NCBI RefSeq assembly: GCF_963921235.1
Contig: NC_086097.1
Location: 46,254,001-46,318,000, forward strand
Direction of reading: 5' to 3'
From: Mobula hypostoma
Lineage: Eukaryota
DNA length: 64,000 nt
The notes under the pieces are model-generated. The model did not search any database. It was not told where the DNA came from and was given only the letters and a program-made list of their open reading frames with translations. This document shows, piece after piece, positions 2,736-64,000 of the stretch; the first letter of the stretch is position 1; every line of letters begins with the position of its first letter. The position numbers and the translations under genes are program-made.

Positions 2736-2953
2736 AACACAAAATACTCTGCAGATGCTGGGGTCAAAGCAACACTCACAACACGCTGGAGGAACTCAGC
2801 AGGTCAGGCAACATTTGTCCCACCCTCCCCCCACCTTCTTTATAGGGCCTCTGCCCCTTCCCTCTTCAGTCCTGACGAAGGGTTCCGGCCCGAAACGTTG
2901 ACTGATCCTTTCCACGGATGCTGTCCGACCTGCTGAGTTCATTCAGCGTGTTG
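2736..2953. mobile_element. Short fold-back Penelope-like element terminus with hammerhead motif
   Basis: Arms caacacgctggaggaactcagcaggtc / gacctgctgagttcattcagcgtgttg; degenerate TSD aaaagtgttaaatta (2721-2735) / aaaagtattaactta (2954-2968). Confidence 0.75.
2866..2905 (+). ncRNA. Minimal type I hammerhead ribozyme motif
   Basis: tcagtc-CTGACGA-a ggg ttccgg ccc-GAAA-cgtt-gactga: 6-bp stem I, intact core, palindromic AACGTT stem III. Confidence 0.75.
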
Positions 2954-3097
2954 AAAAGTATTAACTTATTCGGTGCTTGTACACCAGTAATCCTGATATT
3001 ATCCCTATTAAGTACTCCAATAAACGTATTATTAAATGTGGTCAGTGACTTACTATAAGCAATATCAAAGATTATCTACTGATAATCTACTAAAATT

Positions 3098-3411: not shown

Positions 3412-4690
3412 AATACAAGAAATCCTACAGGTGCTGGAAATCCAGAACAACATACACAAAATGCTGGAAGAATTCAGGTCAAGCAATATTGATAGAAATG
3501 AATAAACAGTTAACCTTCCAGGCCAAGAACCTTCTTCAAGACTGGCAAAGGAAGGGAGAAGGCACCAGAAATTGGGTTTCCCCTTTTCCACCATTAATGC
3601 TGCCATCAACTGCATCTTCTCTATTTCCCATACATCTGTTCTCACCCCATCTTCCCACTGTGTTAACAGGGACAGAGTTCCTCTTGTCCTCACCTACCAC
3701 CCCATGAGCCTTCGCATCCAACAATCGTTCTCTACAACTTCTGGCATTTTCAACAGGCTCCTACCACCAAAGACATCTTTACTCCCAACCACCCCCAACT
3801 CTCCACACTCCACAAAGATCACTCCCCTCTATGATTTTCTTGCCATTCGTCCCTCCGCACTGATCTCTCTCCTGGCACATTTCCCTGCAAGTGACAGAAA
3901 TGCTACATCTGCTCATTCACCTCCTCCCTTACCTCCATTCAGGTCCTCAATCAGTCCTTCCAGGACTGACAACAATACATAATCTGCTAGATTATGTATT
4001 GCATTGAACTACTGCTGCTAAATTAACAAATTTCACGTCACATGCTGGTGATAATAAACCTGATTCTGATTGCTTCTTCTCCAGCCCCTCCCCTTTCCCA
4101 CCCACCTGGTTTCACCCATCACTTTGTAGCTTATCCTCCTTTTTCTGCCCCCCCCCCCACATTTTGGGCCGAGTTTATTCTTCAGGACTGGAGGAAAAAA
4201 AAGTTAAGAAGTCAGAGCAAGAAGGTGGGGGGAGGGGAGGAGAAAATACAAGGTAGTAGGTGATAGGTAAAACCAGAAGAGGGGGTGGATGAAGTAAAGA
4301 GATGGGAAGTTGATTGGTGAAAGAGATAAAGGGCTGGAGAAGGGGGAAATTGATAGGAAAGGATAGAAGTCCATGGAAGAAAGCAAAGGGGGGGGGGAGC
4401 ACCAGAGGAAGGTGATGAGCAGCTGAGAGTGGGAAATGTGAATGGGGAATGGTTTGGGGGGGGAGGGGGGTCATTAACGGAAGTTCGAGAAATTGATGTT
4501 CATGCTATCAGGTTGGAGGTTACCTACCTAGATGGAATACAAAGTATTGTTCCTCCAACCTGAGTGTGGCCACATCGCGGCAGTAGAAGAGGCAATGGAC
4601 TCACATGTTGGAATGGGAATGGGAAGTAGAATTAAAATAGGTGGCCACTGGGAGCTCCTGCTTTTTCTAGTGGACGAAGCATAAGTGCTC
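3412..4690. mobile_element. Older Penelope-like element fragments in both orientations, interrupted by a Rex-like 3' tail (~3985-4072)
   Basis: ORF 3572..3982 'GFPFSTINAA...DRVPLVLTYHP' is homologous to 51118..51399; decayed hammerhead motifs near 3507-3545 and 4160-4191. Confidence 0.75.
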
Positions 4691-6414
4691 ATTGCTAAAT
4701 CTGGAAAGCTCCATACAATTGCAGAGGAACTGATTCTGCCAACAGTAAGGGAAGTTCTGAGTTTGGTTTTGCATACCGCAAGTCACCAGACCAAATAATT
4801 AAATTGATTCAGCTCAGGGATAACTCTGTTCAAAGATGAATCGAGGAAATGTCTGAGAATGTAGACGACACATTGTGCAATGCACTTAGGACAACAGAAT
4901 TTGCTCTGCAGTTGGATCAGTCAACTTTGCTAGGCAATGAATCTTGGTTATGCCCACTTCATAATAGATGAAAGCATGGTTCAAGAGTTGTTAATTGCAA
5001 GTGGGGGGGCGGGAGTGAGATACAGATACAAAGGGAGTCAATATTTTGGGTTGTTGAGCAATTTTTCAAAGGGACTCTTGTGCAACAGTTGAGACACTAT
5101 CAATGATAGGATGCCACTGTGGATTTGTTATTTTTTTGTAAAAACCTGTACCAAGCATATCTACCATTCACTGTGTAATTCACTGACAACATCTTCTTCA
5201 CAAAAAAGCGAGGTGATCAACTGCTCAAATCATTAAGTACTGTTGTCACAGTGGTAAATAAAATCATGTCTCACGCTTTCAATTCTCAACTATTTCAAGA
5301 GGTTTTTATTGAGAACAATGAACAGTCTGAATGCTTGCTATTGCACAGAAAAGTCAGATGACTCTCAAAACAAAACTGCCTGAGACACTTTCCTGCACTT
5401 TTTGAAACTGTGAGAAAATTCTTTGAAGACTCCAATGCTACATTCAGTAATCAACTCAAGAATATTAAGCATGACATTGCTTACTTGTCAGAATTATTCA
5501 CAAACTTTAATGAAATTAATCTTCTATTACAAGGAAATTACGTGAATCTTATCAAAGTCACATCAGTCATCTCTACATTTCTGTCCAAGTTGACCCTACT
5601 TAACAGCGACATTGGCCGTCGCGACCATGTCCAATTTACAAGCATCTCTGAGTTGGAAAAGAAAGAATGAGTACCAGATGATCATCAAGTATACTGTGCC
5701 CACCAGAATGAGCTGCATAAAGACATGTCAGAGAGATTTCAGTACCTCCTCCTAATCCAAGTTCCAGATTGGATAATAAATCCATTCCTGAACATTTGTA
5801 ATGAAGAATTAACAGGAAGGATGGAGGAAGAACAGATCTTGTTACAAAATGACTGAGCTGAAACTGAGGTTCAAAAAAAAAAATCATATCACGATATTTA
5901 GCTACAGAAAGAAATTTCTGAATGTTATCCTACACTGTGGAAAAAGATAAAGATGTTCTTCATTGTCTATCCAACATTACATTTAGTGGAGTGTGGTTTC
6001 CAACTTCTTTCAAAGGAACGAAACAGGCTGCAAGTAACTGAACATGGGGATTTAAGTGACATTCAGTCTGATGTTGAGAAGCTGATATCACTGCACCAAA
6101 CCCAACCATCTCATTGAAAGGTGAAAAAGCAACTAAGTAATGAATAGTCAGACTACTGATGCACATTCTAAAAATTGCTGATGAAAATTGTTTTTACTTC
6201 AAATAAATGAAGAAATAATTTTATTTATAGCCTTTAAATAGATTTGAATAATCTTCGCAATTTTTTGTCACTGCTTTGGATTTACAGTTCCTATTTTCTT
6301 TCACTGTAAATCAAAATTCTTTATAGTTTTTACTTAATGGCCGAAAAGGGAGACGGGGTGCTGGGGATGTGGTCTGGGACCCAAGGAAGCAGTAACCCAA
6401 AAAAAGTTTGGAAA
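4691..6414 (+). mobile_element. hAT-Charlie-type DNA transposon remnant with decayed transposase
   Basis: Frameshifted motifs 'GKLHTIAEELILP', 'FALQLD', 'IHCVIH', 'DIAYLSELFTNFNEINLLLQG'; its 3' end is interrupted by a Penelope-like element. Confidence 0.8.
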
Positions 6415-7445
6415 TGCAAACAACAGGAATTCTGCAGATGCTGGAAATTCAAGCAATACACATCAAAGTTGCTGGTGAACGCAGCAGGCCAGGCAACATC
6501 TCTAGGAAGAGGTGCAGTCGACGTTTTAGACCGAGACCCTTCGTCAGGACTAACTGAAGGAAGAGTGAGTAAGAGATTTGAAAGTTGGAGGGGGAGGGGG
6601 AGATCCAAAATGATAGGAGAAGACAGGAGGGGGAGGGATGGAGCCAAGAGCTGGACAGGTGATTGGCAAAAGGGGATATGAGAGGATCATGGGACAGGAG
6701 GTCCGGGAAGAAAGACGGGGGGGGGGGGACCCAGAGGATGGGCAAGGGGTATATTCAGAGGGACAGAGGGGGAAAAAGGAGAGTGAGAGAAAGAATGTGT
6801 GTATAAAAATAAGTAACAGATGGGGTACGAGGGGGAGGTGGGGCATTAGCGGAAGTTAGAGAAGTCGATGTTCATGCCATCAGGTTGGAGGCTACCCAGA
6901 TGGGAATGGAATGGGATGTCCCATTCTGACATGTCTATCCACGGCCTCCTCTACTGTAAAGATGAAGCCACACTCAGGTTGGAGGAACAACACCTTATAT
7001 TCCGTCTGGGTAGCCTCCAACCTGATGGCATGAACATTGACTTCTCTACCTTCCGCTAATGCCCCACCTCCCCCTCATACCCCACCTGTTACTTATTTTT
7101 ATACATACATTCTTTCTCTCACTCTCCTTTTACTCCCTCTGAATATACCCCTTGCCCATCCTCTGGGTTCCCCCCCCGCCTTGTCTTTCTTCCCGGACCT
7201 CCTGTCCCATGATCCTCTCGTATCCCTTTTGCCAATCACCTGTCCAGCTCTTGGCTCCATCCCTCCCCCTCCTGTCTTCTACTATCATTTTGGATCTCCC
7301 CCTCCCCCTCTCACTTTCAAATCTCTTACTAACTCTTCCTTCAGTTAGTCCTGATGAAGGGTCTCGGCCTGAAACGTCGACAGCACCTCTTCCTAGAGAT
7401 GCTGCCTGGCCTGCTGCGTTCACCAGCAACTTTAATGTGTGTTGC
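6415..7445. mobile_element. Young Penelope-like element, inverted (fold-back) structure
   Basis: Left arm (-) 6415-~6918 and right arm (+) ~6919-7445; endonuclease C-terminus 'EEQHLIFRLGSLQPDGMN'; TSD aaaagtttggaaa at 6402-6414 and 7446-7458. Confidence 0.9.
7347..7381 (+). ncRNA. Minimal hammerhead ribozyme motif
   Basis: agtc-CTGATGA-agg gtctcgg cct-GAAA-cGTC-gac. Confidence 0.75.
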
Positions 7446-7461
7446 AAAAGTTTGGAAACCG

Positions 7462-11060: not shown

Positions 11061-11454
11061 TAGTTTTATTACCTTCCAGATCAATTAGAATAAACTGGAC
11101 TGAAGCCTAGAAATTTGTTAGTTTTTATCTGGGCACAAGTCAAGTCTTTCGCAATGCAAAGGAATGTAGTAAATATTTATAATTAATTTCCTTCTTCAAT
11201 AAAATCTCTAACCACGTCATCAAGTAACTGGAATAAACTGTACATTGTACCAAAAGTATGCAGCAGAGAACACTGCTATTGGCCAACATTTTCTTCTGTT
11301 CCTTATATACCACTGTGCGACTTCATGCCTTTATCATTCTGTCAAGCAATTTCAGTTTTTCAATATTTGTTTTGATTTATACAGTTTATCTTATTCTGCA
11401 CATTAGTTGTCAATCTTCATTTGTTTTTTGTATTATTCTGTTGTATTTCATGAC

Positions 11455-11680
11455 AAAACATAAAAACGCTGGCCTGCTGCATCAATGGAGCAGAATAAAC
11501 AGTCAATGCTTTGGTCCAAGACCCTTCATCTTTCGTAAACAAAAGAGATTCTGCAAATGTTGAAAATCTTGAGCAACACCCAGAACATGTTACAGAAACT
11601 TAGCAAGTCAGGCAGCATCTATGGAGGGGATTAAACAGTCAATGTTTCAGGCTGAGACCCTTCATCAGGACTGGTGAAAG
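11455..11680 (-). mobile_element. Two tandem older Penelope-like terminal fragments; hammerhead motif at 11636-11673
   Basis: Reverse complement cagtc-CTGATGA-agggtctcagcct-GAAA-catt-gactg. Confidence 0.7.
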
Positions 11681-12509
11681 GCTGGAAATGGATATCTGCG
11701 ATTCTGAAAGTCCAGAGCCAAGGAATGGAAGTTGGAGGTGTTTGTGAGTGGGTGGGAAGATGGAAAAAGGGCTTGCTTTGCTGTTGTTGATCTGCTGACA
11801 TTATGGGCATGCTACGTTGGTGCTGAAATGTGTGGTGACACTTGCGGGCTCTCCAGTACATTCTTCAGTTGCGTTGGTTGTTAACACAAACAACACATTT
11901 CACTGTATGTTTTGGTGCGCATGTGATAAATAAATGGATCTAAATCTGTCATTTCACTGAACTTTTCAAAGATTGTTAGCAACCCAACAGTCACCTCCAC
12001 TATATTTCCCCCATTTTCACAGCTATTATCATTTTCTCACAATCTTTTTATTCCTTTTCAGCTTCTACCCAATATTCTGTAACGTTGAACCCACCACACA
12101 GAAACAACGGCTGGTGATACCCATTTTGTCAGGTTGCTACAGTAAAATTCTGCAGCAAACTAGATCATTTGTGAAAATATAATTGCAAGCAAGTTACAGC
12201 TTTGGATTACAGCTCAAAACAGTACATTATTGTAGTATTATAGCATTGCTCTAAAGAATTTATAAAAATATACAAAACCTCTTAAATATCAAACAAACTA
12301 ACAAGGACAGATGTCATCAGATTTTAATGTCAAATATCAACATAGCCTCATGTTAATCAGTTACATGAGGTAACTGCCCAGCAAAACGAGTATTGACTTA
12401 GGGTGGTTGACAAAGTGTTAGGTGTTCGGATAGTGGGTGGGGGTGTGGAGAGTAGATGCCCAAGTATGTTTGTATTCTATAGTTGATATACATCCATCTG
12501 TAAGGTAAG

Positions 12510-19200: not shown

Positions 19201-19709
19201 AAAATTACTCATCAAAAGCTATATGCTGAAGAATGTGAAAAATTAAAAAAAGACTAAGGAGTTAAAAAGGAAGTTAGTGAGACCAACAGTAATAGTGAAC
19301 AAGGTCTGGTGCAGGGATGGATATGATTGCTGACAGCTCCATGCAGTGATAATATTAAATAACATTGACTTAATTTTTACAGGTTTTCCCAAATTAGTAC
19401 AGTTTAAAAATCAACCCACTAGATTCACTTTTGCTGATGTGATAAATGCAAATGCTGGAAATCTGAAACAAAACCAGAAAATGCTGAAAGCATTCAATAG
19501 GTCATGCAGCACTGGAAAGATAAACAAAATATACATTTTGGATGAATGAAATGCAACAATGAGAAACCAATGCTTTAAGCTGCATGAAGAAGTGTGGAAA
19601 AGTATTGTCTGTGATAAAGTGAAGACCATGGTTGACTGGCAACTCAATTACTTAGAGTCAGAGGTTACACAGAGAAGCAAGGAACAAAGGAACATGTCTA
19701 GAAATTTGA

Positions 19710-19905
19710 AGTAGAATTCTGCAAATACCCAGCACACCAGGCAGCATCTGTTACAGGTTGATGACTGTACATAAGAACTTGCCAGTTTTGATGAAGGGTT
19801 GCAGACTCAAAATATAACTGCTTCTCTTTCAACAGATGTTGCCTGACCTGTTGAACATTTCCAGCATTTTTTCATTTTGTTTTACATTTCCAGCATCAAC
19901 AGTTT
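19710..19905. mobile_element. Old fold-back Penelope-like terminus
   Basis: caggcagcatctg / cagatgttgcctg arms, decayed hammerhead ttgatgaaggg...caaaa, tail tttccagcatc. Confidence 0.6.
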
Positions 19906-19917
19906 TATTATACTTTA

Positions 19918-21985: not shown

Positions 21986-22565
21986 TTTTCAGAATAGACT
22001 AGTTATATGAAGCTGTTGAATTGAGTCCAAACAGTTACAATGTGCCCAGACAGAAGGGGAGTTGTTGTTCCTTAAATAAGGCATCTTTGGAGCGGTGTGG
22101 ATGGAGAAAGTCAGAAGAGGTCAAAGTGGGAGTCTGAGGGAGAATAAAAATGACAGAAAACTAGTACTTCAGGGTCACCTTAATGGTCTGAATAGAGGAA
22201 TACTTCAAAGAAGTCCATGGACGAACATGGAGGAGACACATTGTGAACACTGAACAGAACACTAAATTGAATTGCTATGAATTGCTGCTTCATTTGGAAT
22301 GAGTGTTGAGTCTCTGGGTAGTGGTAAGGAAGTGGTAATGATGCATTACTTACAGTTGCAAATTGTCATGAGAAGGGGATTGGTTGGTGGAGATGGAAGA
22401 CTGAACTATAAAGTCACAGAGGGATCATGCCCTTACTAATACTGATAGAGGAGGGGAGACATAGTAATCTCATCAGTGGAAATCTCATTGAAAGGCGTAG
22501 AAAGTATTGTTTTTAAAATATTCATTTAATGCAACAATAACAATGTAGAACCAGTTTAATCTGCC

Positions 22566-23293
22566 TAGTGGTAGACCTGAGGAGAGCTAAGGTACCAGTG
22601 ACCCCTGTTTCTATCCAGGGGGTCAGTGTGGACATGGTGGAGGATTACAAATACCTGGGGATACGAATTGACAATAAACTGGACTGGTCTAAGAACACTG
22701 AGGCTGTCTACAAGAAGGGTCAGAGCCGTCTCTATTTCCTGAGGAGACTGAGGTCCTTTAACATCTGCCGGATGATGCTGAGGATGTTCTATGAGTCTGT
22801 GGTGGCCAGTGCTATCATGTTTGCTGTTGTGTGCTGGGGCAGCAGGCTGAGGGTAGCAGACACCAACAGAATCAACAAACTCATTCGTAAGGCCAGCGAT
22901 GTTGTAGGGATGGAACTGGACTCTCTCACGATGGTGTCTGAAAAGAGGATGCTGTCTAAGTTGCATGCCATCTTGGTCAATGTCTCCCATCCACTACATA
23001 AAGTACTGGGTGGCCACAGGAGTACATTCAGCCAGAGGCTCATTTCTCCGAGATGCAGCACAGAGTGTCATAGGAAGTCATTCCTGCCTGTGGCCATCAA
23101 ACTTTACAACTCCTCCATTGGAGGGTCAGACACCCTGAGCCGATAGGCTGGTTCTGGACTTATTTCATAATTTACTGGCATAATTTACATATTATTATTT
23201 AACTATTGATGGTTCTATTACTATTTATTATTTATGGTGCAACCGTAACGAAAACCAATTTCCCCCGTGATCAATAAAGTATGACTATGACTA
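22566..23293 (+). mobile_element. Young Rex1-like LINE 3' fragment; same family at 47061-47366 and ~62055-62933
   Basis: ORF 22568..23146 is nearly identical to 62211..62789; tail aataaagtatgactatgacta. Confidence 0.85.
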
Positions 23294-23412
23294 TTTTCAG
23301 TCAGTACTGAACATAAAAGACTTTGCAAATTTCATTCCATTTATAGTCATGCAATCATAAAGACACACAGCAAAGAAACAGGTTCTTGATGATAATCAAT
23401 ATCTATTTATAC

Positions 23413-23493: not shown

Positions 23494-24790
23494 ATTTATA
23501 CCAACTCTTAACCAATACTTTGTTTAGAACATTTCTAGGTGATTCAACTGTTAATTCACGTTTCTTAAATGTTGCAAGAATATCTGCTTCCATCACCTTC
23601 TCAGGCAGTGCATTCCGGTTTGCAACTATCCTCAGGTTAAAAAAAAATCTTCCTCAAATCTCCTCTAAACATCTTAATTTTTGACTTTAATCTACACCCT
23701 CTAATCTTAAAACACCTCTGTCCTGCTTGAAAGTTCTTTTTAAACTATCTACCTTATCTATGTCTCTCATAATTTTGTCCATTTCTATTAAGTTTGCCCC
23801 AAAACCTGCTCTGCTCCAAGTAAAACCAAGACCTGTCCAATCTTCCCTTCCATCTCAGACAGGATGCTAGTGAATTTCTGCATCCTTTCCAGTGCAACCT
23901 TCTTCTATTGCAAGTAATATCTCACTAAAAGGGGTCCTATAAAGGTTTCACATAGCTAGCAGATGCACAGTTAGCTAGCCAGATTCAACTTAGCAGCTGA
24001 TAGACTATCTAACCCATTAAATGAAAACTAAAAAGCAGCAGCAGACAGTACTAGCACTATAGCAGTTTCTACTGAAAGGCCAAATCCAGTTATTCAGCCT
24101 GAAACTTGCATTAACTCTGATACACAACACCCGCCCTCCCCCCACTTTTCTGATCATTCCCTATCTTGGCTCATGTGTTCTCAAATCCGTTGTGACACTT
24201 TATTCAAGTCATTAAGATATTTACATAATTTAAACTCACTAATATACCATGGTCCAGAACCAAAAAAAAACACACTAAAAGTTTACATAAGCAAAAACTA
24301 TGCAGACAACATTTCTCACAAGCTTGCTTGGATGTAAAAATCACAGAAGGTATTTCAGGAAACCACACTCTGTCACCATTTCCTTTCACTGAAAATACTG
24401 TTCTCCTGACAATATCCTGCATGCAGTCATACTATGGTGTGTGTAAAACCACAGCTATTTCAACGCAAATGCTAAGGTCTGTGTAACCACTGGAAAACTT
24501 GCAAGAATGAAGCAAATACCAATGCTTAAATTTTGTTGGTGCAAGGAATTAGAAACAGTAAATTGGCAGGAGATTTATTTAGACTCTGAACTATATTTAT
24601 GTGGCTTGTCCAGTAAAGTTTTTAGTCAAACCCTAGGAGGTCCCTTAAGGTTGTTATAGCTGGGCAGAAGGATCTTAAAACCAGTCACTTCAGGCAGATG
24701 GGCCTGTCAGCCATGGTTGGCAGCTCATCTAGGAGAATGGAAACTCTTGCTAATCCCACTTAGAGCAAGGTTTTGGGAGTAAACCCTAAG

Positions 24791-26527
24791 GCTTTGTGCG
24801 GAACCAAAGGAAATGGGGGAGATCTTAAATGGGTTTTTTGCATCTGTATTTACTAAGGAAGCTGGCATGAAATTATGGAATTGAGGGAATCAAGTAGTGA
24901 GACCATGGCAACTGTACAGATTGAAAAGGAGGAGGTGCTTGCTGTCTTGAGGAAAATTAAAGTGGATAAATCCCCGGGACCTGACGGTGTTCCCTCAGAC
25001 CTTGAAGGAGACTAGTGTTGAAATTGCGAGGGGCCCTGGCAGAAATATTTAAAATGTCACTGTCTACGGGTAAAGTGCCGGAGGATTGGAGAGTGGCTCA
25101 TGTTGTTCCGTTGTTTAAAAAAGGATCGAAAAGTAATCTGGGAAATTATAGGCCGGAGAGTTTAACGTCAGTAGTAGGTAAATTATTGGAGGGAGTACTA
25201 AGAGACAGAATCTACAAGCATTTGAATAGACAGGGGCTTATTAGGGAGAGTCAACATGGCTTTATGCGTGGTAGGTCATGTTTGACCAATCTGTTGGAGT
25301 TTTACGAGGAGGTTACCAGGAAAGTGGATGAAGGGAAGGCAGTGGATATTGTCTACATGGACTTCAGTAAGGCCTTTGACAAGGTCCCGCATGGGAGGTT
25401 AGTTAGGAAAATTCAGTCGCTAGGTATACATGGAGAGGTGGTAAATTGGATTGGACATTGGCTCGATGGAAGAAGCCAGAGAGTGGTGGTAGAAAATTGC
25501 TTCTCTGAGTGGAGGCCTGTGACTAGTGGTGTGCCACAGGGATCAGTGCTGGGTCCATTGTTATTTGTCATCTATATCAGTGATCTGGATGATAATGTGG
25601 TAAATTGGATCAGCAAGTTTGCTGCTGATACAAAGATTGGAGGTGTAGTAGACAGTGAGGAAGGTTTTCAGAGCCTGCAGAGAGACTTGGACCAGCTGGA
25701 AAAATGGGCTGAAAAATGGCAGATGGAGTTTAATACTGACAAGTGTGAGGTATTGCGCGTTGGAAGGACAAACCAACGTAGAACATACAGGGTTAATGGT
25801 AAGGCACTGAGGAGTGCAGTGGAACAGAGGGATCTGGGAATACAGATACAAAATTCCCTAAAAATGTCGTCACAGGTAGATAGGGTCGTAAAGAGAGTTT
25901 TTGGTACATTGGCCTTTATTAATCAAAGTATTGAGTATAAGAGCTGGAATGTTATGATGAGGTTGTATAAGGCATTGGTGAGGCCGAATCTGGAGTATTG
26001 TGTTCAGTTTTGGTCACCAAATTACAGGAAGGATATAAATAAGGTTGAAAGAGTGCAGAGAAGGTTTACAAGGATGTTGAGAAACTCAGTTACAGAGAAA
26101 GGTTGAATAGGTTAGGACTTTATTCCCTGGAGCGTAGAAGAATGAGGGGAGATTTGATAGAGGTATATAAAATTATGATGGGTATAGATAGAGTGAATGC
26201 AAGCAGGCTTTTTCCACTGAGGCAAGGGGAGAAAAAAAACCAGAGAACATGGGTTAAGGGTGAGGGGGGAAAAGTTTAAAGGGAACATTAGGGGGGGCTT
26301 CTTCACACAGAGAGTGGTGGGAGTATGGAATGAGCTGCCAGACGAGGTGGTAAATGCGGGTTCTTTTTTAACATTTAAGAATAAATTGGACAGATACATA
26401 GATGGGAGGTGTATGGAGGGATATGGTCCGTGTGCAGGTCAGTGGGACTAGGCAGAAAATGGTTTGGCACAGCCAAGGGCCAAAGGGCCTGTTTCTGCGC
26501 TGTAGTTTCTATGGTTCTATGGTTCTA
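24791..26527 (+). mobile_element. Young 5'-truncated CR1 LINE
   Basis: RT ORF 25015..26106; tail ttctatggttctatggttcta; splits an unclassified repeat (~24660-24790 / 26528-26700). Confidence 0.95.
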
Positions 26528-30149: not shown

Positions 30150-33100
30150 GCCAATCAACGACCAGGATGGAAGTGCAAGAACAAATAAAAATAAAGAAGA
30201 GTGGTCATTGCTGGAGTGGACAATGTTAAAGTGGTTATTCACAGCTTTAGCTCTTCAAGGGTTCAGTAAGGAGTAAGGAGAAGCTTGAGTTGGAGGAAGC
30301 AAAAAAGCTGTAGGTAGGTTCCTCCTCCCTCCTCCAGTTTATTTATTGTTTCCTTCTTTATAATTGCATGGCTAGAACAGCAATGATAACAGGCAGGACA
30401 GTTGAATGCTCCTCTTGCAGGATCTGGGAAGGCAGGGAGGCCTCAAGTGTCCCTGATGACTTCACCTGCAAGTGCATCCAGCTTCTAACAGTTTGTTAAG
30501 GATTTGTAGCTGGAACTGGATGAACTCCGGAACAATTGGGAGGCTGAGAGGGTGACAGATAGGACATATAGCGAGGTAGTTACATCCAAGGTGCAAGATA
30601 CAAGAGAATGAGTGACAGTCAGGAAAGGGGAAAAAACGGTTAAGCAGCAAGTGCAAAATACCCCTGTGGCCATTCCGATCCTCAACAACTATAACACTTT
30701 AGATACTGTTCCAGGGGATGACCTAGCAAAGGAAAGTTACAGCAGTCAGGTCTGTGGCACGGAATCTGTCTCTATGACTCAGAAGGGAAGGGGAGGTCGG
30801 GGTGAAGGAGAGAGCTGTGATGATAGGGCATCCATTAGCTCAGGCAACAGGAAGGAGGTTCTGTAGACAATGGTAAGTTGCCCCTGGGTGTTAGGGTCCG
30901 GGATCTTAGATCGAGTCCTCAGCATTCTTAAGTGGAAGTGTGAGCAGCCAGAGCTCATGGTCCATGTAGGTACCAATGGCATACGTAGAAACTTGATGAG
31001 GTTTTGCAAAGTGAGTTCCGGGAGTTAGGTGTCAAGTTAAAGAACAGGACCTCCAGGGTTGAGATCTTAGGGTAGCTATCCAGGCCATGTGCTAGTGAGG
31101 CCAGAAGAAGGAAGATCTAACACGTGGTGTAGGAGAGAGGGCATCACACTTTTGGATTGTTGGGCTTTTTTCCAAGGAAGGTGAGACCTGTACAGAAGAG
31201 ACAGTTTGCACCTGAACTGGAGGGTAACTAATATCCTAGCAGAAAACTTGCCAGTGGTGCATGGGGGTGGAGGGTGGGAGGAAAGAAGGTTTAAACTAGA
31301 ATTGCAGGGGGATGAGAACCAAAGTGCCAAAACAGATAGAGGAGAGATTGTGGAGGCAGATGTCATTAAGACCTCAAAGTTAGGAAGCAAAAGGTTGTGC
31401 ATGGTGCAACTTTTAATGTAAGAAATATTGTAGGAAAGGCAGATGAGCTCAAGGCACGGATCGACACATGGAATTATGGTATTGTAACCATTGGTGAGAT
31501 GTAGTTGAGGAGGGGTAGGACTGGCAGCTCAATATTCCAGGGTTTCGTTGTTTTAGATGTGACAAAGCGGGACGGATTATAGGAGGAGGAGTGGCATTAC
31601 TGGCCAGGGAAAATGTCACTGCAGTGCTCTGTCAGGACAGTCTGAAGAACTCGTCTGGAAAGGCATTATGGGTGGAACTGAGAAATAAAAAATGTACGAC
31701 CATGTTAATGGAGCTATTACAGACCACCCAGCAGTCCGGGGAATTTAGAGGAACAAATTCGTAAAGAGATTGCAGACTAGTACAAGAAACATAAGGTTGT
31801 TATAGTAGGTGATTTTAAACTTTCCACACATTGACTGGGACTCCCATACTGTAAAAGTACTAGATGTTATAAAGTTTGTCAAATGTGTTCAGGGAAGTTT
31901 CCTTAATCAGTATATAGAAGTCCCAAAGAGAGAGTGTGCAATACTTGATCTCCTATTAGGGAGTAAGACAGAAATTTGTGTAGGGAACACTTTGTATCTA
32001 GTGATCATAACCCATTAGTTTCAAAGTAAATATGGGAAAAGATAGGTCTGGTCTGTAGGCTGAGATTCTAAATTGGAGTAAAGCCAATTTTGATGGTATC
32101 AGAAAGGATCTGGCAAGTGTGGATTGGGACAAGCTGTTCTCTGGGTGTATACTTGGTGTAATGGAGGCCTTCAAAAGTGAAATTTTGAGAGTACAAAGTT
32201 TAAATGTGCCTGCCAGATTATAAGGTAAAGATAACAGGCTTGGCTTTCAAGAGATATTGAAGCCCTAGTTAAGGGGAAAAAAAGGAGGTGCATAGCAAGT
32301 GTAGACAGGTAGGAACAAATGAGGTACTTATGGAGTATAAGAAATGCCAGAGAACACCCAAGAAAGAAATCAGGAAGGCTAAAAGAAGGCATATGGTTGC
32401 CCTAGCAGACAAGTTGAAAGAGAATCCTAAGGATTTCATGTGACAAAGTTGGTCCTCTGAAATATCTGAATGGTAATTTATGCATGGAACCAAGAGATAG
32501 GGGAGGTCTTAAATGCTTTCATCTGTATTTACTCAGGAGATGGACACAGTCTATAAAATTGAGGCAAAGCAGCGACGAATTCATGGATCCTATAAAGATT
32601 ACAGAAGAGGAAGTGTTTGCTATCTTGAGGCAAATTAGTGTGGATAAATCCCCAGGGTCTGACAAAGTGTTTCCTCGGACCCTGTGGGAGACAGATGTAG
32701 AAACTCCAGGGGCCCTAGCAAAGATACTTAAATCATCCTTAGCGATGTGAAGTAAATGAGGATTGGAGGAAAGCTAATATTGTACCGCTGGTTAAGAAAG
32801 GCTCTAAAAATAAACCAAGAAATTACAGGCTGGTGAGCCTGACCTCAGTAGTGGGAAAGTTCTTGGAAGGTTTTCTAAGAGACTGGATATGTGGGTATTT
32901 GGATAGACATGGACTGATTAGGGATAGTCAGTATGGCTTTGTATGTGGTAAGTCATGTCCAATCAATCTTAGAGTTTTCTAAGGGAGTTACCAGAAGAAT
33001 TGATGAAGCAAAGCAATGATGTTGTCTATGTGGACTTCAGCAAGGAATCTGACAAGGTCCTCCATAGGAGGTTGGTCAAATTCAAAATGAGATGGTAAAT

Positions 33101-34105
33101 TTGATTAGAAATTGCTTTGCAGGACAAGCCAGAGAGTGACAGTAGATAGTTGCCTCTCTGACTGGAGGCTTGTAACTAGTGGTGTGCCACAGGGATCAGT
33201 GCTGGGACTGTTGTTGCGCATCTTCTATATCAGTGATCTGGATGATAATTTGGTTAACTGCATCAGAAAATTTGTGGATTGCCCCAAGATTGTGAGTGCA
33301 CTAGACAATGTGGTAGATTATCAGAGCTTGCAGCAGGATCTAGACCAGTTGGAAAAATGGCAGATAGAATTTAATACAGACAAATGTGAGGTGTTGCACT
33401 TCAGTAGGGCCAGCCAGGGTAGGTCTTACACAGTGCATGGTAGGGCACAGAGGCATGCGGTAGAACAAAAAGACCTTGGAATACAGGTCCATAATTCGTT
33501 GAAAGTGGTATGACAGGTAGATAGGGTTGTAAAGAAAGCTTTTGCACATTGGCCTTCATAAATCAAAGTTTTGAGTACAGGAGATGGGATGTTATGTTGA
33601 AATTCTACAAGGCGTTGGTGAGACCTAATTTCAAGTATTGTGTGCAATTTTGTTTACCTACCTGCAGGAAGGACGTAAATAAAGTTCAAAGAGTACATAG
33701 AAAATTTACAAGGATATTGCCAGGACTGGAGAACCTGAGTTACAAGGAAAGATTGAATAAGTTAGGATTTTATTCCTTGGAATGTAGAAGATTGAGGGGG
33801 ATTTGATATACTTATACAAATTATGATGGATATAGACAGGGTGAATGCAAGCAGGCTTTTTCCACTGATGTTGGATGGGACTACAACAGGAGGTATGTCT
33901 GGGTTAAAAGTGAAAGGTGAAAAGCTTAAGGTGAGCATGAGGAGAAACTTCTTCAACAAGACTGTCATTAGAGTGTGGAATAAGCTGCCGGCTCAAATGG
34001 TACATGCCAGTTTGATTTCAAAATTTAAAAGTAGTTTAAACGGTTTAGCGTGGACTAAATGGGCCAAAGAGCCTGTTTCTTTGCTGTACTTTTCTATGAC
34101 TCTAA
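30150..34105 (+). mobile_element. Near full-length decayed CR1: ORF1 (zinc finger + SGNH esterase) and ORF2
   Basis: ORF1 remnants 'ECSSCRIWE...FTCKC', 'VHVGTN', 'DSLHLNWR'; ORF2 EN/RT remnants 'DWDSHTVK', 'GVPQGSVLG'; 3' tail tttctatgactcta. Confidence 0.9.
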
Positions 34106-44480: not shown

Positions 44481-44589
44481 TTAACTCCAATTAATCAGTT
44501 AAGTAGTAACAGTGCTTAAAAATTCAACTTATGAAACTTAAAAATAGTTAATGTACAAGCTGCATACAGAAAAATACAAAGAAATGCAT

Positions 44590-44751
44590 ACAACAGGAAT
44601 TCTGCAGATGCTGGAAATTGAAGCAACACACATCAAAGTTGCTGGTGAACGCAGCAGGCCAGGCAGCATCTCTAGGAAGAGGTACAGTCGACGTTTCAGG
44701 CCGAGATGCTGCCTGGCCTGCTGCGTTCACCAGCAACTTTGATGTGTGTTG
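44590..44751. mobile_element. Hairpin-only Penelope-like insertion (162 bp)
   Basis: Perfect 50-bp inverted arms 44623-44672 / 44703-44752; TSD caaagaaatgcat at 44577-44589 and 44752-44764. Confidence 0.9.
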
Positions 44752-45254
44752 CAAAGAAATGCATGTTCAGAAACAAAAAAAAGACACCTTTCCCAAGCAA
44801 AATTCAGTAGTTCGAGGTATTAGGGTTTCCTCATAGCAGAAAGACATCTAGGTCTTCCATGTATGTAAAGTCAAGTAGAGAAGCCCCTAACTTACTCACA
44901 GGTATGAAACAGAATCAATCAATTCACTTAGCTTCTCCAATCTATTCAGAGACCACTTGTGGAGTTCCATTCTGTCGAGATTTCCAATATTTACTCTGGG
45001 AACTGGCTCTCAAAGACCCCAGCGACAAGGCAGTGAAGGTGAAATGCAGGCAACTACCCTTTGCAAAATTATGTAATTTTTATGTTATTTTAAAAGTATT
45101 TATAAGTGTTGGCTGATGACCCTAGAGCTGCCATAAGGGCACTGCTGGAGGTACGGCAGGCAGTAATGCCAAGCAGGAAATATCTTCCTGTGAATCTCGT
45201 TGGCTGGTCTGATTCTTAGGGAAAGTTATTTTCTTTTTAATTTTTTAATCTATT

Positions 45255-46055: not shown

Positions 46056-47749
46056 CTTTCATAAGTGCCTTCAAATGTCAAGGATATACAGAAACATTTC
46101 AAAGACCTTATAACCTTGACGGTCAAAGCTAGGGCAAGATTCTTCTGGCTGCTGAAATTTACAACCACATTTCAGGATGATGTTTGTTAAATACACCTCT
46201 GTGGGCCTTGCTGTCACTGAGTCCATGGTCCTTTGGGCCAACAAGTATTCTGTATCAAGACCAGATGACAGTGGGAATTAGTGGGAAGGTTTTCATCCCT
46301 AATTGCTTTAAGGTGATGAGGCAGCCTTCTGGTGTAGATGCTCCCACAATGTTAAAAAATAAAGCATTCTAGGACATACAGAGATCCTGTGACAATGAAA
46401 AAGCAGCAATACATTTCCAAGTCAGGATGGTATATTATTGGGAGACTTGCAGATGGTAATGCCTCTGTACATCGTGCCTTTGTCCTTTAACAGTAGGGGT
46501 AACAGTCTCTAAGTAATTACAGTGCATGTTATAGTGGGACAGACTGCAATCACCGTGCAATGATGATGGAAGAAATGAATTTTAACCATGGTCCATGCCA
46601 ACAAAATCTGGCCATGAGTGCTCCAAATACTTCAGTATGCAACTACAATAACAAGCACATACTTGTCTCATTTAATGTTGTCCAAACTGGAATTATTCTT
46701 TTATATCTTTTCTGTGGCTTGTTTTGTGTGGTGTACATAATCAAGAAATTGTGTTTAAAAAAAGATCATCAATGTTTTACAACGCAGGAGGTGATTTAAC
46801 CAAATTTAAGCTAATCCTCCAATCCTCTAGCATCACTCCTGTACCCACAAGGAGATTGAGAAGCTAAAATCTGGTCCTTTCTTTCTTTACTTCTTTTAAC
46901 AACCTAGGATACATTTCATGGGAGATGGCAATTTGTCCATTTTTAAAGATTAAGTTTCTCTTAGAAATTGGATGCAACTTTTTGCTTTGTGAGAATTTAT
47001 TTTCCCTGAATCCCCCAAATCTTCCTGTTGAATTCTTTCAATTTCTCCAAATGAGTTTATATAATGTCTCCCATCCATTACATAATGTACTGGTGGGGCA
47101 CAGGAGTACAGAGACTCATTCCACCAAGATGCAACACAGAGCGTCAAAGGAAGTCATTCCTGCCTGTGGCCATCAAACTTTACAACTCGTCCCTTGGAGG
47201 GTCAGACACCCTGAGTCAATAGGCTGGTGGTCCTGGACTTATTTCCTGGCATAATTTACATATTACTATTTAACTATTTATGGTTTTAATACTATTTAAT
47301 TATTTATGGTGCAACTGTAACGCAAACCAATTTCCCCCGGGATCAATAAAGTACGACTATGACTATAAGCAACTATTGCTAATGCATTTTTATTAAATTG
47401 CTTCTCGCTCTAGTATATTTGGCCTTACCCCAATTTAGAACCTGATTTATTATATTTGTCTTTATCCTTAACTATGCTCAGTCTAACTGCATTTATGATC
47501 ACTGTCACAAAAAATGGTTTCCAATTCATACTCTTCAAAATGCTCATCTTTATTTCCCAAACTGCATAAGATTAGTTGTGCATTGAATAGTTCAAGTAAT
47601 CCAATGACCAACAGTTCAAAGAGCTCTTTTAAAAAGTGTTGCCAGATTCTTTGAATTACCATCTCTGTCCCAGCTTCTTATCCATCTTTCCACCTAGAGA
47701 TGAGCTTGTATAGAGATTCTCAGATACAGGTGATGCTGCAAAGTATCAT

Positions 47750-49790: not shown

Positions 49791-50157
49791 AATAATATAT
49801 TAGGAAGGCATTCAAGATTTAATGTCATTTCCAGTACACAAATGTAAAGGAGAACAAAATAATTGCTATTCCAGATCCGATACAGCAAAAAAAAACTCAG
49901 TAACAATTTAAAAAACAATAAATATCAATACAGTATGTAAGACAGCTTATATACGTAGATTGACTGTATGTCCATAAAGTGACACTAGGCGCAGGAGTGT
50001 CTGTGCATAAGGTGACTGACAGAAAAAGATAAAGTAGTGGTGGTTGGTGCTGTAGAGGCAAACAACAGGAATTCTGCAGATGCTGGAAATTCAAGCAACA
50101 CACATAAAAGTTGCTGGTGAACGCAGCAGGCCAGGCAGCATCTCTAGGAAGAGGTAC

Positions 50158-50193
50158 AGTCAATATTTCGGGTCGAGACCCTTCATCAGGACT
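50158..50193 (-). ncRNA. Minimal hammerhead ribozyme motif
   Basis: Reverse complement agtc-CTGATGA-agggtctcgaccc-GAAA-tatt-gact. Confidence 0.6.
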
Positions 50194-52152
50194 AACTGAA
50201 GGAAGAGTTAGTAAGAGATTTGAAAGTGGGAGGGGGAGGGGGAGATCCAAAATGATAGGAGAAGACAGGAGGGGGAGGGATGGAGCCAAGAGCTGGACAG
50301 GTGATTGGCAAAAGGGATACGAGAGGATCATGGGACAGGAGGTCCGGGAAGAAAGACAAGGGGGGGGACCCAGAGGATGGGCAAGGGGTATAGTCAGAGG
50401 GACAGAGGGAGAAAAAGGAGAGTGAGAGAAAGAATGTGTGTATAAAAATAAGTAACAGATGGGGTACGAGGGGGAGGTGGGGCATTAGCGGAAGTCAGAG
50501 AAGTCGATGCTCATGCCATCAGGTTGGAGGCTACCCAGACGGAATATAAGGTGTTGTTCCTCCAACCTGAGTGTGGCTTCATCTTTACAGTAGAGGAGGC
50601 CGTGGATAGACATGTCAGAATGGGAATGGGATGGGGAATTAAAATGTGTGGACACTGGGAGATCCTGCTTTCTCTGGCGGACAGAGCGTAGGTGTTCAGC
50701 AAAGCGGTCTCCCAGTCTGCGTCGGGTCTCGCCAATATATGAAAGCCACATCGGGAGCACCGGACGCAGTATATCACCCCAGCCGATGCACAGGTGAAGT
50801 GTTGCCTCACCTGGAAGGACTGTTTGGGGCCCTGAATGGTGGTAAGGGAGGAAGTGTAAGGGCATATGTAGCACTTGTTCCACTTACACGGATAAGTGCC
50901 ATAAATGCTTATCCACTGATGTTTCCCCTTTCTAGATCTTTCTGTCTCTGTCTCTGGAGACAGCTTATCCAGTGATGTCTACTATAAGCCTACTGACTCT
51001 CACAGCTATCTGGACTATTCCTCTTCTCACCCTGTCTCTTGCAAAAACGCCATCCCCTTCTCGTAATTCCTCCGTCTCTGCCGCATCTGCTCTCAGGATG
51101 AGGCTTTTCATTCTAGGATGAGGGAGATGTCTTCCTTTTTTAAAGAAAGGGGCTTCCCTTCCTCCACTATCAACTCTGCTCTTAAACGCATCTCCCCCAT
51201 TTCACGTACATCTGCTCTCACTCCATCCTCCCACCACCCCACTAGGAATAGGGTTCCCCTGGTCCTCACCTACCACCCCACCAGCCTCCGGGTCCAACAT
51301 ATTATTCTCCGTAACTTCCGCCACCTCCAACGGGATCCCACCACTAAGCACATCTTTCCCTCCCCCCCACCCCTGCATTCCGCAGGGATCGCTCCCTAGT
51401 CCATTCGTCCCCCCCATCCCTCCCCACTGATCTCCCTCCTGGCACTTATCCGTGTAAGCGGAACAGGTGCTACACATGCCCTTACACTTCCTCCCTTACC
51501 ACCATTCAGGGCCCCAAACAGTCCTTCCAGGTGAGGCAACACTTCACCTGTGAGTCGGCTGGGGTGATATACTGCGTCCGGTGCTCCCGATGTGGCCTTT
51601 TATATATTGGCGAGACCCGACACAGACTGGGAGACCGCTTTGCTGAACACCTACGCTCTGTCTGCCAGAGAAAGCAGGATCTCCCAGTGGCCACACATTT
51701 TAATTTCCCATCCCATTTCCATTCTGACATGTCTATCCACGGCCTCCTCTACTGTAAAGATGAAGCCACACTCAAGTTGGAGGAACAACACCTTATATTC
51801 CGTCTGGGTAGCCTCCAACCTGATGGCATGAACCTTGACTTCTCTAACTTCCACTAATGCCCCACCTCCCCCTCGTACCCCATCTGTTACTTATTTTTAT
51901 ACACACATTCTTTCTCTCACTCTCTTTTTTCTCCCTCTGTCCCTCTGACTATACCCCTTGCCCATCCTCTGGGTCCCCCCCCCGCCTTGTCTTTCTTCCC
52001 GGACCTCCTGTCCCATGATCCTCTTGTATCCCTTTTGCCAATCACCTGTCCAGCTCTTGGCTCCATCCCTCCCCCTCCTGTCTTCTCCTATCATTTTGGA
52101 TCTCCCCCTCCCCCTCCAACTTTCAAATCTCTTACTAGCTCTTCCTTCAGTT

Positions 52153-52188
52153 AGTCCTGACGAAGGGTTTCGGCCTGAAACATCGACT
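52153..52188 (+). ncRNA. Minimal hammerhead ribozyme motif
   Basis: agtc-CTGACGA-agggtttcggcct-GAAA-catc-gact. Confidence 0.65.
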
Positions 52189-53572
52189 GTACCTCTTCCT
52201 AGAGATGCTGCCTGGCCTGCTGCGTTCACCAGCAACTTTTATGTGTGGTGCTGTAGAGGGGTGGGTTAGTGGATGAAAGTATTGATCAGCCTTACTGCAA
52301 GTGGAAAGTAATTGTTTTTGAGTCTAGTGGTCCCAGGGTGGATATTACCCTGATGGGAGTGGGACAAACAAGTCATGAGCAGGGTAGGTAGAATCCTTTA
52401 TGATGTTACTGACCATTTTCTAGCACCCTTCTGTATACATGTCCTTGATGGCAGGTAAACTGGTGTCAGTGATGCACTGAGCAGTTTTAACTACTTCCTG
52501 TCTGGTGCAATGCAGTTTCTGTACATGCAGTGATGCAGCTTGTTAGGATGCTCTCTACTGTGAATCTGCAGATGGACATGAGTATAGATGTGCATAGTCT
52601 AGATCTACCCCAGAAAGTAAAGGCATTGGTGAGCTTTTTTGATTGTTTAGGATGTATTCTGGAACCACAAGAGGTTGTGCGAAATGTGCACTCCCAGAAG
52701 TTTGAAGGTGCTCGCCATTTACACTGCTGTGCCAATGATGTAGAGGGGGTGAGAGTGGTGCGAGTTCTCCTAAAGTTGATAATCATCTCTTTTATCTTGT
52801 TGATATTAAGGAAGAGGTCATTTGTCGGTGGGCACCAGGCCTCAAGCTGTTCCACCTCTTCTCTGTAGCCGTCTTGTCATTGTTGGTGATGAGCCCCACC
52901 ACAGTTGTGTCATTGGCAAAATTGACAGTGTGCTTACTTAGGTGTTTGAGTGTGCAGTTATGTGTGAGCAAGGTATACAGTAACAGACTCAGCACCAGCT
53001 CTGGGGGACATGCGTGTTGAGGATGATGGGAAGGGAGAAGCAGCTGTCCATCCTGAAAGTCTGAAGTCGATTCATTTAGAAGCCCAACACTGAAATGCAC
53101 AAAGCTGTATTAGACTGAGGAGTAGGAGCTTGTTCACCAAGGTCTGTGGGGCAATAGTGCTGCATGCTGAAATGAAATCCAGAAACAGCATTCTGACACA
53201 AGTTTGTATTCAAGGTGTGTCACAACCAGGCACATGAGAGATGCTATGGCATCTGTTGTTGAGCGGTTCTGTTCGTCAACATATTGGTGAGTGCCCAATG
53301 TGGCAAGAATGGAGTTTTGGTTACGTATCATTACCAGCCATTCAAAACACTGCATGATGATTGGCATCAGTGCCACCGGGTGGTAGTCAGTTCGTTTTTG
53401 AGGTGTAGAGTTCTTTGCTACAGACATGAAGGTGATTGATTTGAAGTATGTTGTTGAGTGAAGTGTTGAAGATGTCTGTGAAGACATCACCATGCTGGTG
53501 TGCACACTCCCCGAGTACTGAGCCTGGGATGTTGTTGGGCCCAGGTTGACACTGCACAGTCCTTCTCACATA

Positions 53573-62054: not shown

Positions 62055-62933
62055 CTCAAGATACATCTTCAGAAGTTTTCAGATGACTCTGCCATAGTTG
62101 GATGCATCAGCAAGGGAGATGAGGCTGAGTACAGGGCTACGGTAGGAAACTTTGTCACATGGCGTGAGCAGAACTATCTGCAGCTTAATGAGAAAAAAAC
62201 TAAGGAGCTGGTGGTAGACCTGAGGAGAGCTAAGGTACCGGTGACCCCTGTTTCCATCCAGGGGGTCAGTGTGGACATGGTGGAGGATTACAAATACCTG
62301 GGGATACGAATTGACAATAAACTGGACTGGTCAAAGAACACTGAGGCTGTCTACAAGAAGGGTCAGAACCGTCTCTATTTCCTGAGGAGACTGAGGTCTT
62401 TTAGCATCTGCCAGACGATGCTGAGGATGTTCTACGAGTCTGTGGTGGCCAGTGCTATCATGTTTGCTGTTGTGTGCTGGGGCAGCAGGCTGAGGGTAGC
62501 AGACACCAACAGAATCAACAAACTCATTCGTAAGGCCAGTGATGTTGTGGGGATGGAACTCGACTCTCTCACGGTGGTGTCCGAAAAGAGGATGCTGTCT
62601 AAGTTGCATGCCATGTTGGTCAATGTCTCCCATCCACTACATAATGTACAGGGTGGGCACAGGAGTACATTCAGCCAGAGACTCATTCCACCGAGATGCA
62701 GCACAGAGCGTCATAGGAAGTCATTCCTGCCTGTGGCCATCAAACTTTACAACTTCTTCCTTGGAGGGTCAGACACCCTGAGCCAATAGGCTAGTCCTGG
62801 ACTTATTTCATAACTTACCAGCATAATTTACATATTACTATTTAACTATTGATGGTTCTATTACTATTATTTATGGTGCAACTGTAACGAAAATCAATTT
62901 CCCCCAGGATCAATAAAGTATGACTATGACTAT
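62055..62933 (+). mobile_element. Young Rex1-like LINE 3' fragment
   Basis: 'KFSDDSAIVG', ORF 62211..62789, tail tatgactatgacta. Confidence 0.85.
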
Positions 62934-62982
62934 ACCTTGACTAACCTCTTCCCACTGTTGTTGGTAACGGCTCTATTTCATT

Positions 62983-64000
62983 CAACACACATCAAAGTTG
63001 CTGGTGAACGCAGCAGGCCAGGCAGCATCTGTAGGAAGAGGTGCAGTCGACGTTTCAGGCCGAGACCCTTCGTCAGGACTAACTGAAGGAAGAGTGAGTA
63101 AGGGATTTGAAAGTTGGAGGGGAGGGGAAGATCCAAAATGATAGGAAAAGACAGGAGGGGGAGGGATAGAGCCAAGAGCTGGACAGGTGATAGGCAAAAG
63201 GGGATACGAGAGGATCATGGGACAGGAGGTCCGGGAAGAAAGACAAGGGGGGGGGACCCAGAGGATGGGCAAGAGCTATATTCAGAGGGACAGAGGGAGA
63301 AAAAGGAGAGTGAGAGAAAGAATGTGTGCATAAAAATGAGTAACAGATGGGGTACGAGGGGGAGGTGGGGCCTTAGCGGAAGTTAGAGAAGTCGATGTTC
63401 ATGCCATCAGGTTGGAGGCTACCCAGATGGAATATAAGGTGTTGTTCCTCCAACCTGAGTGTGGCTTCATCTTCACAGTAGAGGAGGCAGTGGATGGACA
63501 TGTCAGAATGGGAATGGGATGTGGAATTAAAATGTGTGGCCACTGGGAGATCCTGCTTTCTCTGGCGGACAGAGCGTAGATGTTCAGCAAAGCAGTCTGC
63601 CAGTCTGCGTCGGGTCTCGCCAATATATAAAAGGCCACATCGGGAGCACCGGACGCAGTATATCACCCCAGTCGACTCACAGGTGAAGTGTCGCCTCACC
63701 TGGAAGGATTGTTTGGGGCCCTGAATGGTGGTAAGGGAGGAAGTGTAAGGGCATGTGTAGCACTTGTTCCGCTTACACGGATAAGTGCCAGGAGGGAGAT
63801 CAGTGGGGAGGGATGGGGGGGACCAATGGACAAGGGAGTTGTGTAGGGAGCGATCCCTGCGGAATGCAGGGGGGGGGGGGAGGGAAAGATGTGCTTAGTG
63901 GTGGGATCCCGTTGGAGGTGGCGGAAGTTACGGAGAATAATATGTTGGACCCGGAGGCTGGTGGGGTGGTAGGTGAGGACCAGTGGAACCCTATTCCTAG
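62983..64000 (-). mobile_element. Penelope-like element of the same family, running off the window end
   Basis: GIY-YIG ORF 63373..63699; terminal repeat matches the 6415 and 50059 copies. Confidence 0.92.
63045..63080 (-). ncRNA. Consensus-perfect minimal hammerhead ribozyme motif
   Basis: Reverse complement agtc-CTGACGA-agg gtctcgg cct-GAAA-cGTC-gact. Confidence 0.8.

Follow-up and report, generated by a model that had tools for sequence, protein, structure and literature searches.

A minimal hammerhead motif in a frameshifted copy of an abundant Penelope-like family in Mobula hypostoma

Introduction

What does a hammerhead motif do at the end of a Penelope-like element? Although widely conserved in these elements, the motif is not needed for insertion in vitro, and one successful clade lacks it. 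With its very many copies of several ages, a ray genome is well suited to this question. We analysed a window of 64,000 nucleotides of Mobula hypostoma (NC_086097.1, positions 46,254,001 to 46,318,000), in which an earlier sequence-only reading had proposed a family of minimal hammerheads, one of them at 63045-63080(-). To which class does this motif belong, what carries it, and is the copy likely to act?

Metazoan Penelope-like elements, among them Xena, Poseidon and Neptune of fishes, carry minimal hammerheads (min-HHRs) in their pseudo-LTRs (Cervera and De la Peña 2014, PMC4209133), so that the ribozyme class was, as had been stated, already known.

Results

The motif at 63045-63080(-) has the features of the published minimal class

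Read along its strand, the motif consists of helix I (AGUC), CUGACGA, an extra A, helix II (GGGU, loop CUCG, GCCU), GAAA, CGUC and helix I' (GACU). Its first helix II pair is G·U, and the predicted cut falls between 63049 and 63048, 66 nt before the element end.

63045..63080, minus strand: minimal type I hammerhead motif (min-HHR); helix I 4 bp, helix II 4 bp, unpaired A, palindrome ACGU, C17

The sequence fits the min-HHR descriptor of Penelope-like elements, which asks for CUGANGA, an optional extra base, helix II of 3-7 bp, GAAANNUH and helix I of 3-7 bp. Scanning the 64-kb window with a descriptor near the published RNAmotif pattern, though not identical to it, gave six matches, whereas 200 dinucleotide shuffles averaged 0.005 matches and never gave more than 1; when the 15.2-16.2 pair was made obligatory, four matches were left and none arose across all 200 shuffles. 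Since the six matches are related repeats, the shuffle test contains few independent events, and what it demonstrates is a family. These six were precisely the copies that had been listed as intact. The same listing gave GAAA-CGUC for all of them, which is correct for the copies at 63045 and 7347 (two of six); the others read CGUU (2866) and UAUU (50158), with palindromes kept, or CAUC (52153) and CAUU (11636), with palindromes broken. The palindromic stem III attributed to all six is therefore retained in four and lost in two.

Across a set of seven copies, the 15.1-16.1 palindrome is present in five, as ACGU at 63045-63080(-), and the unpaired base between positions 9 and 10.1 is A in all seven, as it is in all six old copies. 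The nearest motif on the same strand within the window lies 12.9 kb off and has a different palindrome.

The published register places an unpaired base after A9 and makes G10.1 the first base of helix II (PMC4209133). The copies described here share with that class CUGANGA with the unpaired base, G10.1, GAAA, a short helix I, a U-rich 5' flank, a helix III reduced to the palindrome, the position in the terminal repeat and the occurrence mostly as solo or opposite-strand copies (PMC4209133). An Acropora Neptune example (Fig. S3 of the PMC4209133 supplement) starts with CUGACGAA-GGG and carries CGUC, like 63045-63080(-). They differ in their short helix II of 4 bp, in which G·U is mostly the first pair, whereas the published first pair is G10.1-C11.1 (PMC4209133); G·U at 10.1-11.1 is also found in Schistosoma, Clonorchis, cichlid, coelacanth and Xenopus examples (PMC4209133 supplement). 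On its sequence and position features, 63045-63080(-) thus belongs to the min-HHR class of Penelope terminal repeats.

Could the likeness to a hammerhead have arisen by chance and then been multiplied by repeat amplification? The small number of independent events is compatible with this, as is the Rfam search of the window, which at E up to 5 gave eight weak matches, none of them to a hammerhead. However, the position and the unusual features equal those of published Penelope motifs, and the motif is retained across subfamilies whose upstream flanks are unrelated. We regard chance as already largely refuted and scarcely credible.

The motif follows the endonuclease frame of a broken element

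Three features make up the remainder of the element in the window:

63373..64000, minus strand: 3' part of the element frame, with RT-thumb end, CX4CxxC linker, GIY-YIG endonuclease, CxxC and two His; continues past the window edge
63081..63372, minus strand: pyrimidine-rich 3' untranslated region from stop codon to motif; subfamily-specific
62983..63044, minus strand: conserved segment 3' of the motif, reaching the tail-less element end at 62983, where loose ends of contigs fall

The motif starts 293 nt after the stop codon of the endonuclease frame. In the frame at 63373-63894(-) a CX4CxxC finger precedes VIY-CxxC-YIG and two histidines; its Pfam GIY-YIG score is 17.2 bits, under the 22.6 cut-off, and the GIY-YIG and CCHH motifs are visible in the alignment. 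Judged by its sequence this copy is broken: tblastn shows a frame shift at a poly-C run near 63870-63894, and an Arg common to all eight other aligned sequences is Cys in the copy at 63373-64000(-).

The window contains the RT end alone of this copy (tblastn to residues 210-525 of homolog P0010), and core RT motifs are found upstream of the endonuclease in homologs P0004, P0008 and P0010. The CX4CxxC finger lies between RT and endonuclease in the window frame and in its relatives. A protein search yielded 13 matches from 305 candidates; most of the named ones are from Hypanus sabinus, at 74-95% identity, and one each comes from Mobula hypostoma and Rhinoraja longicauda, which by itself points to a ray as the likely host. 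A PDB search gave no matches. Identity of the endonuclease frame to two ENA-derived relatives was 46% and 45%, and the 531-aa relative has an RT domain upstream. These features mark an endonuclease-bearing Penelope-like element (PMC8557442), of Neptune or Nematis type by its linker.

Four of the ray and skate gene models (P0003, P0004, P0009 and P0013), annotated as mucin-2, a kinase-domain protein, a chitinase-domain protein and a neuromedin-U receptor, include pieces of the element frame, and may be annotation artefacts or exonised copies.

Sister insertions of several ages share one layout

Related insertions and remnants are spread through the window:

50058..52252, both strands: sister insertion within a 14-bp target duplication; motif 50158-50193 on the tail arm, 50058-50901(-), and motif 52153-52188 on the other arm, 50923-52252(+)
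6411..7448, both strands: sister insertion; tail arm 6411-6922(-) with motif 6516-6551 (GAAA>AAAA); 13-bp target duplication
6919-7448, plus strand: second arm of the 6411..7448 insertion, with motif 7347-7382
44581..44755, both strands: very small sister insertion within a 13-bp target duplication; only the 3' half of the motif on the tail arm, inverted arm of 50 nt
2748..2962, both strands: from an older subfamily; first pair G-C and CGUU in motif 2866-2905(+), plus a short inverted arm at 2771-2818(-)
11450..11742, minus strand: older subfamily; motif 11636-11673 with broken palindrome, tail, then a decayed second copy near 11500
19700..19915, both strands: old decayed motif 19785(+); short inverted arm 19714-19752(-)
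3415..4705, both strands: old remnants; RT-thumb and linker fragment at 3536-4008(+), with a decayed motif close to 3510(-)
4159-4705, minus strand: old endonuclease and 3' region, with half a motif near 4165 at its end

In all three young two-armed insertions the arms point outward, just one of them bears a tail (about 40 nt), and a 13-14 bp target duplication encloses the whole; the five young element ends are 94-97% identical. Older, diverged ends lie near 2866, 3510, 4165, 11500, 11636, 13200, 19500 and 19785. The GAAA>AAAA change in the 6516(-) copy and the decayed copies near 3510, 4165, 11500 and 19785 had all been noted before and were recovered, together with further pieces at 44624-44706(-), 44703-44751(+), 2771-2818(-), 13130-13200(-), 19714-19752(-) and 19474-19520(-). 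By hand-drawn intervals, DNA derived from the family amounts to about 6.4 kb, or 10% of the window.

This layout of inverted partner, tail at one end and target duplication is known for the class (PMC8557442, PMC11167929). With Neptune and Nematis the family shares, in addition to truncation, inverted partner, tail and duplication, the C-terminal GIY-YIG with CCHH and a CX2-5CxxC linker; it differs in that none of its three duplicated target sites is a (TA)n microsatellite and that the window has no full-length copy (PMC8557442). Neither a tandem nor a full-length source copy was seen within the 64-kb window, and in the only direct pair of motifs (11636 and 11500) the second unit is decayed. 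In an inverted insertion the two motifs occupy opposite strands, so a single transcript carries just one.

Type I hammerheads derived from Penelope terminal repeats are also a feature of the non-LTR retrozymes, which have been found in the one cartilaginous fish sampled (bioRxiv 10.64898/2026.07.22.740005). Those are tandem and non-coding, whereas the copies described here are dispersed, truncated ends of a coding element (bioRxiv 10.64898/2026.07.22.740005); with the second unit of the sole direct pair decayed, identity with a retrozyme array was ruled out.

The fold-back of the two inverted Penelope arms at 44626-44751 produced an Rfam mir-2 match (E 0.015, below the gathering score), which is an artefact, and such inverted-arm fold-backs could be mis-annotated as microRNAs elsewhere. 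Separately, the segment 62983-63027(-), taken with the tails at 6411-6453, 44581-44623 and 50058-50095, contains UGCUG twice and CAGCA twice (once in the tail). Alternative UGCUG/CAGCA helices could mark the two element ends, a suggestion without covariation support. A two-helix structure 3' of the motif was considered and rejected: paired cells, at 90%, equalled shuffles, and RNAalifold chose another fold with no two-sided change.

Core positions outlast the upstream flank

Compared with the young majority, six old copies agreed at 62/72 core positions and at 27/101 positions of the upstream 25 nt, with 12/24 in loop II and 1/6 at N7, so the core is better kept than that flank. The catalytic positions scored 32/36 (CUGA.GA) and 20/24 (GAAA). 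Because the profile used to find the old copies contains the motif, core conservation is overstated. The segment 3' of the motif is conserved as well (100/180 matched, a figure lowered by an alignment shift), so that conservation is not peculiar to the ribozyme.

Stem II had been said to differ between subfamilies (agg/cct against ggg/ccc) while staying paired; this turned out to be a slip of register, since all seven copies compared have AGGG as their 5' arm and position 11.1 alone varies. No helix II pair (0/4) changes on both sides among nine copies, and whole-structure covariation in the same nine was not above shuffles (167/500, 159/500). What survives of the claim is the variation at 11.1, where U is likely a lineage variant (see below). 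The AGG/CCU register was rejected, being less stable (-4.6 vs -6.0 kcal/mol) and at odds with the published consensus.

The family is very abundant and mostly carries U at 11.1

In the public run X1, 120,140 contigs matched to 521 bases, with summed depth (which does not equal copy number) peaking over the motif and the segment that follows it. Loose contig ends, among those listed, pile up at 62983, 63044, 63080, 63202 and 63378-63379; 410 contigs end at 63044 and 438 at 63080, the two motif edges, as expected if other subfamilies share the motif without its flanks. The Penelope-like family of this copy is thus very abundant, and the proposals of a fixed place for the hammerhead in its terminal repeat and of a high-copy, multi-age family are both upheld, with the linker being of the type common to Neptune and Nematis. 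For comparison, 4,000-9,000 min-HHRs per genome have been counted in coelacanth and frog (PMC4209133), and six descriptor matches in 64 kb suggest a higher density here.

Among the listed variants within the motif, two are CpG transitions, which reach 12% and 11% in X1, and the other is C11.1. The last accounts for 29% in X1 and 21% in X9, a contig set presumed to be of RNA origin, leaving U11.1 with about 71% and 79% of summed contig depth; among nine copies the first helix II pair is G·U in seven and G-C in two. An origin of U11.1 by CpG decay only is weakened, because neighbouring CpG sites change at 11-12% and yet U is the majority (the reference carries U, a possible bias). As U11.1 is far commoner than such decay alone would give, it is likely, from these sequence frequencies, a lineage change.

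At 62926-62985, several X1 contigs join the short-repeat tail of the neighbouring LINE (which ends near 62933) to the Penelope end with differing spacings. These joints may mean that two abundant repeats happen to lie side by side, or that there is a target preference.

Folding predictions disfavour the active structure

Nearest-neighbour predictions for the monomer paired the core GACG with CGUC, at -10.0 kcal/mol against -6.0 for the active fold. A double hammerhead held by ACGU/ACGU was predicted at -9.5 kcal/mol, an energy that rose to about 0 when the palindrome was broken; the best dimer was a plain duplex at -28.3 kcal/mol, with the catalytic dimer 19 kcal/mol higher. Once 30 nt of flank were added, the probability of helices I and II was 0.0 in four young U11.1 copies, 63045-63080(-) included, and that of helix II was 0.15-0.40 in the other three. 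The active hammerhead fold of 63045-63080(-) is therefore predicted to be disfavoured by a model that ignores the non-canonical core, which makes folding weak evidence either way. In the U11.1 context, an upstream UUCAG within 63057-63092(-) is able to pair with the CUGAA running from the end of helix II into GAAA, which gives a predicted core-trapping hairpin.

None of the four short arms starts at the cut site: three begin about 16-21 nt past it and one in loop II, so the window bears no trace of in vivo cleavage. The raw-read runs X21 and X22 yielded 2 and 0 reads.

Penelope elements are known to contain introns. The arms at 44703(+), 2818(-) and 19752(-), which open about 16-21 nt past the predicted cut, do so at the AGAUG that heads the conserved downstream segment (63025-63044(-)). 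In several subfamilies a pyrimidine-rich tract ending in AG precedes AGAUG and resembles a 3' splice site, an observation from three cases only; the starts of the two old arms (2818(-) and 19752(-)) are merely where similarity ends.

Discussion

We favour the reading, at a probability of about 0.8, that 63045-63080(-) is a min-HHR in the terminal repeat of a frameshifted Penelope copy, that the motif is likely selected in tandem sources that would cut as dimers, probably protein-aided, and that the lone copy is likely inert. On this model the motif is likely kept by selection in tandem source copies of the family. By analogy with known systems, the two motifs of a source transcript would be joined by pairing of their ACGU palindromes and would then cut, probably with the assistance of the element's protein, and cleavage would trim or circularise the element RNA. 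The dispersed truncated copies, with one motif per strand, would be passengers that decay mainly at CpG sites.

The analogies come from other elements. A single Schistosoma min-HHR showed no cleavage as a monomer, and its dimers cleaved slowly (PMC4209133). Among Xenopus dimer elements, one of nine cleaved. In PAc, the Poseidon element of the green anole, cleavage was seen only with the element's protein and was dispensable for insertion in vitro (PMC11167929). The family shares with PAc the hammerhead in the terminal repeat and the tail between two element ends; it differs in belonging to another clade, PAc having no linker finger (PMC11167929). The PAc reading frame starts inside the hammerhead motif (PMC11167929). 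Here, a reading frame from an AUG 3' of the motif was judged doubtful, owing to a 1-nt gap there between young and old copies.

An alternative is that the motif is retained chiefly because the element protein uses it as a binding or folding signal, as part of a terminal RNA domain of 100-140 nt that sets the start of reverse transcription, with cleavage vestigial in the young lineage. Anole mutants with a dead ribozyme still insert in vitro, and no anole RNA-seq reads are reported to end at the cut site (PMC11167929); Naiads, too, are reported to proliferate without the motif (PMC8557442). In the window, the conserved downstream segment and tail, the prevalence of U11.1, the disfavoured predicted fold and the four short arms all point the same way. 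However, it is the catalytic positions that are kept, whereas N7 and loop II vary; several published examples have G·U at 10.1-11.1, including Schistosoma Sm1, of a family that cleaved weakly as a dimer; and no consistent fold or covariation was found for the downstream segment. We consider this reading unlikely.

A further proposal, which we hold to be unlikely and somewhat speculative, is that the youngest, amplified ray lineage spread with a weakened ribozyme (G·U first pair, core-trapping flank), its burst having followed the loss or protein-gating of self-cleavage. If so, comparison of the C11.1 and U11.1 lineages would be a natural test of the hammerhead as a help or a burden.

Might 63045-63080(-) itself cleave host or read-through transcripts, alone or in trans with other intact copies? 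All its core positions and its palindrome are intact, and the family is very abundant in X1, by a contig count whose depth is not copy number. However, the inactivity of the Schistosoma monomer, its slow dimers and the predicted pairing of the core with CGUC speak against this, and we consider it very improbable. Returning to the favoured reading of a motif selected in tandem sources, the lone copy is, on structural predictions of this kind, likely inert.

The motif, its place and the proposed dimer mechanism are already published, and 63045-63080(-) adds family membership only; the family is ordinary in kind and notable for its abundance only. No names of cartilaginous fish were seen in the PMC4209133 supplement, and a search of literature listings for a hammerhead-bearing Penelope family in cartilaginous fish found no description, although subscription papers, Repbase or Dfam may hold one.

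Beyond the ray, the min-HHR motif pattern had no matches in metagenome contigs, and the element protein profile matched 0/49 candidates in viral contigs and 4/117 in metagenome contigs. Metagenome contig L003 encodes a full-length Penelope-like frame of 840 aa (L003:913-3432), and about 440 nt after its stop, at L003:3872-3900, lies a hammerhead-like core in which CGGC follows GAAA; with CGGC in place of NNUH it was not counted as a match.

Finally, the window holds other LINE remnants at 20034-21998(-), 22565-23294, 47063-47367, 62208-62933, 14889-17709, 24790-26520 and 31411-34037. They include a 654-aa RT frame (PF00078, E 5.6e-32) and endonuclease-RT fragments, and their repeated 3' ends are 86-94% identical.
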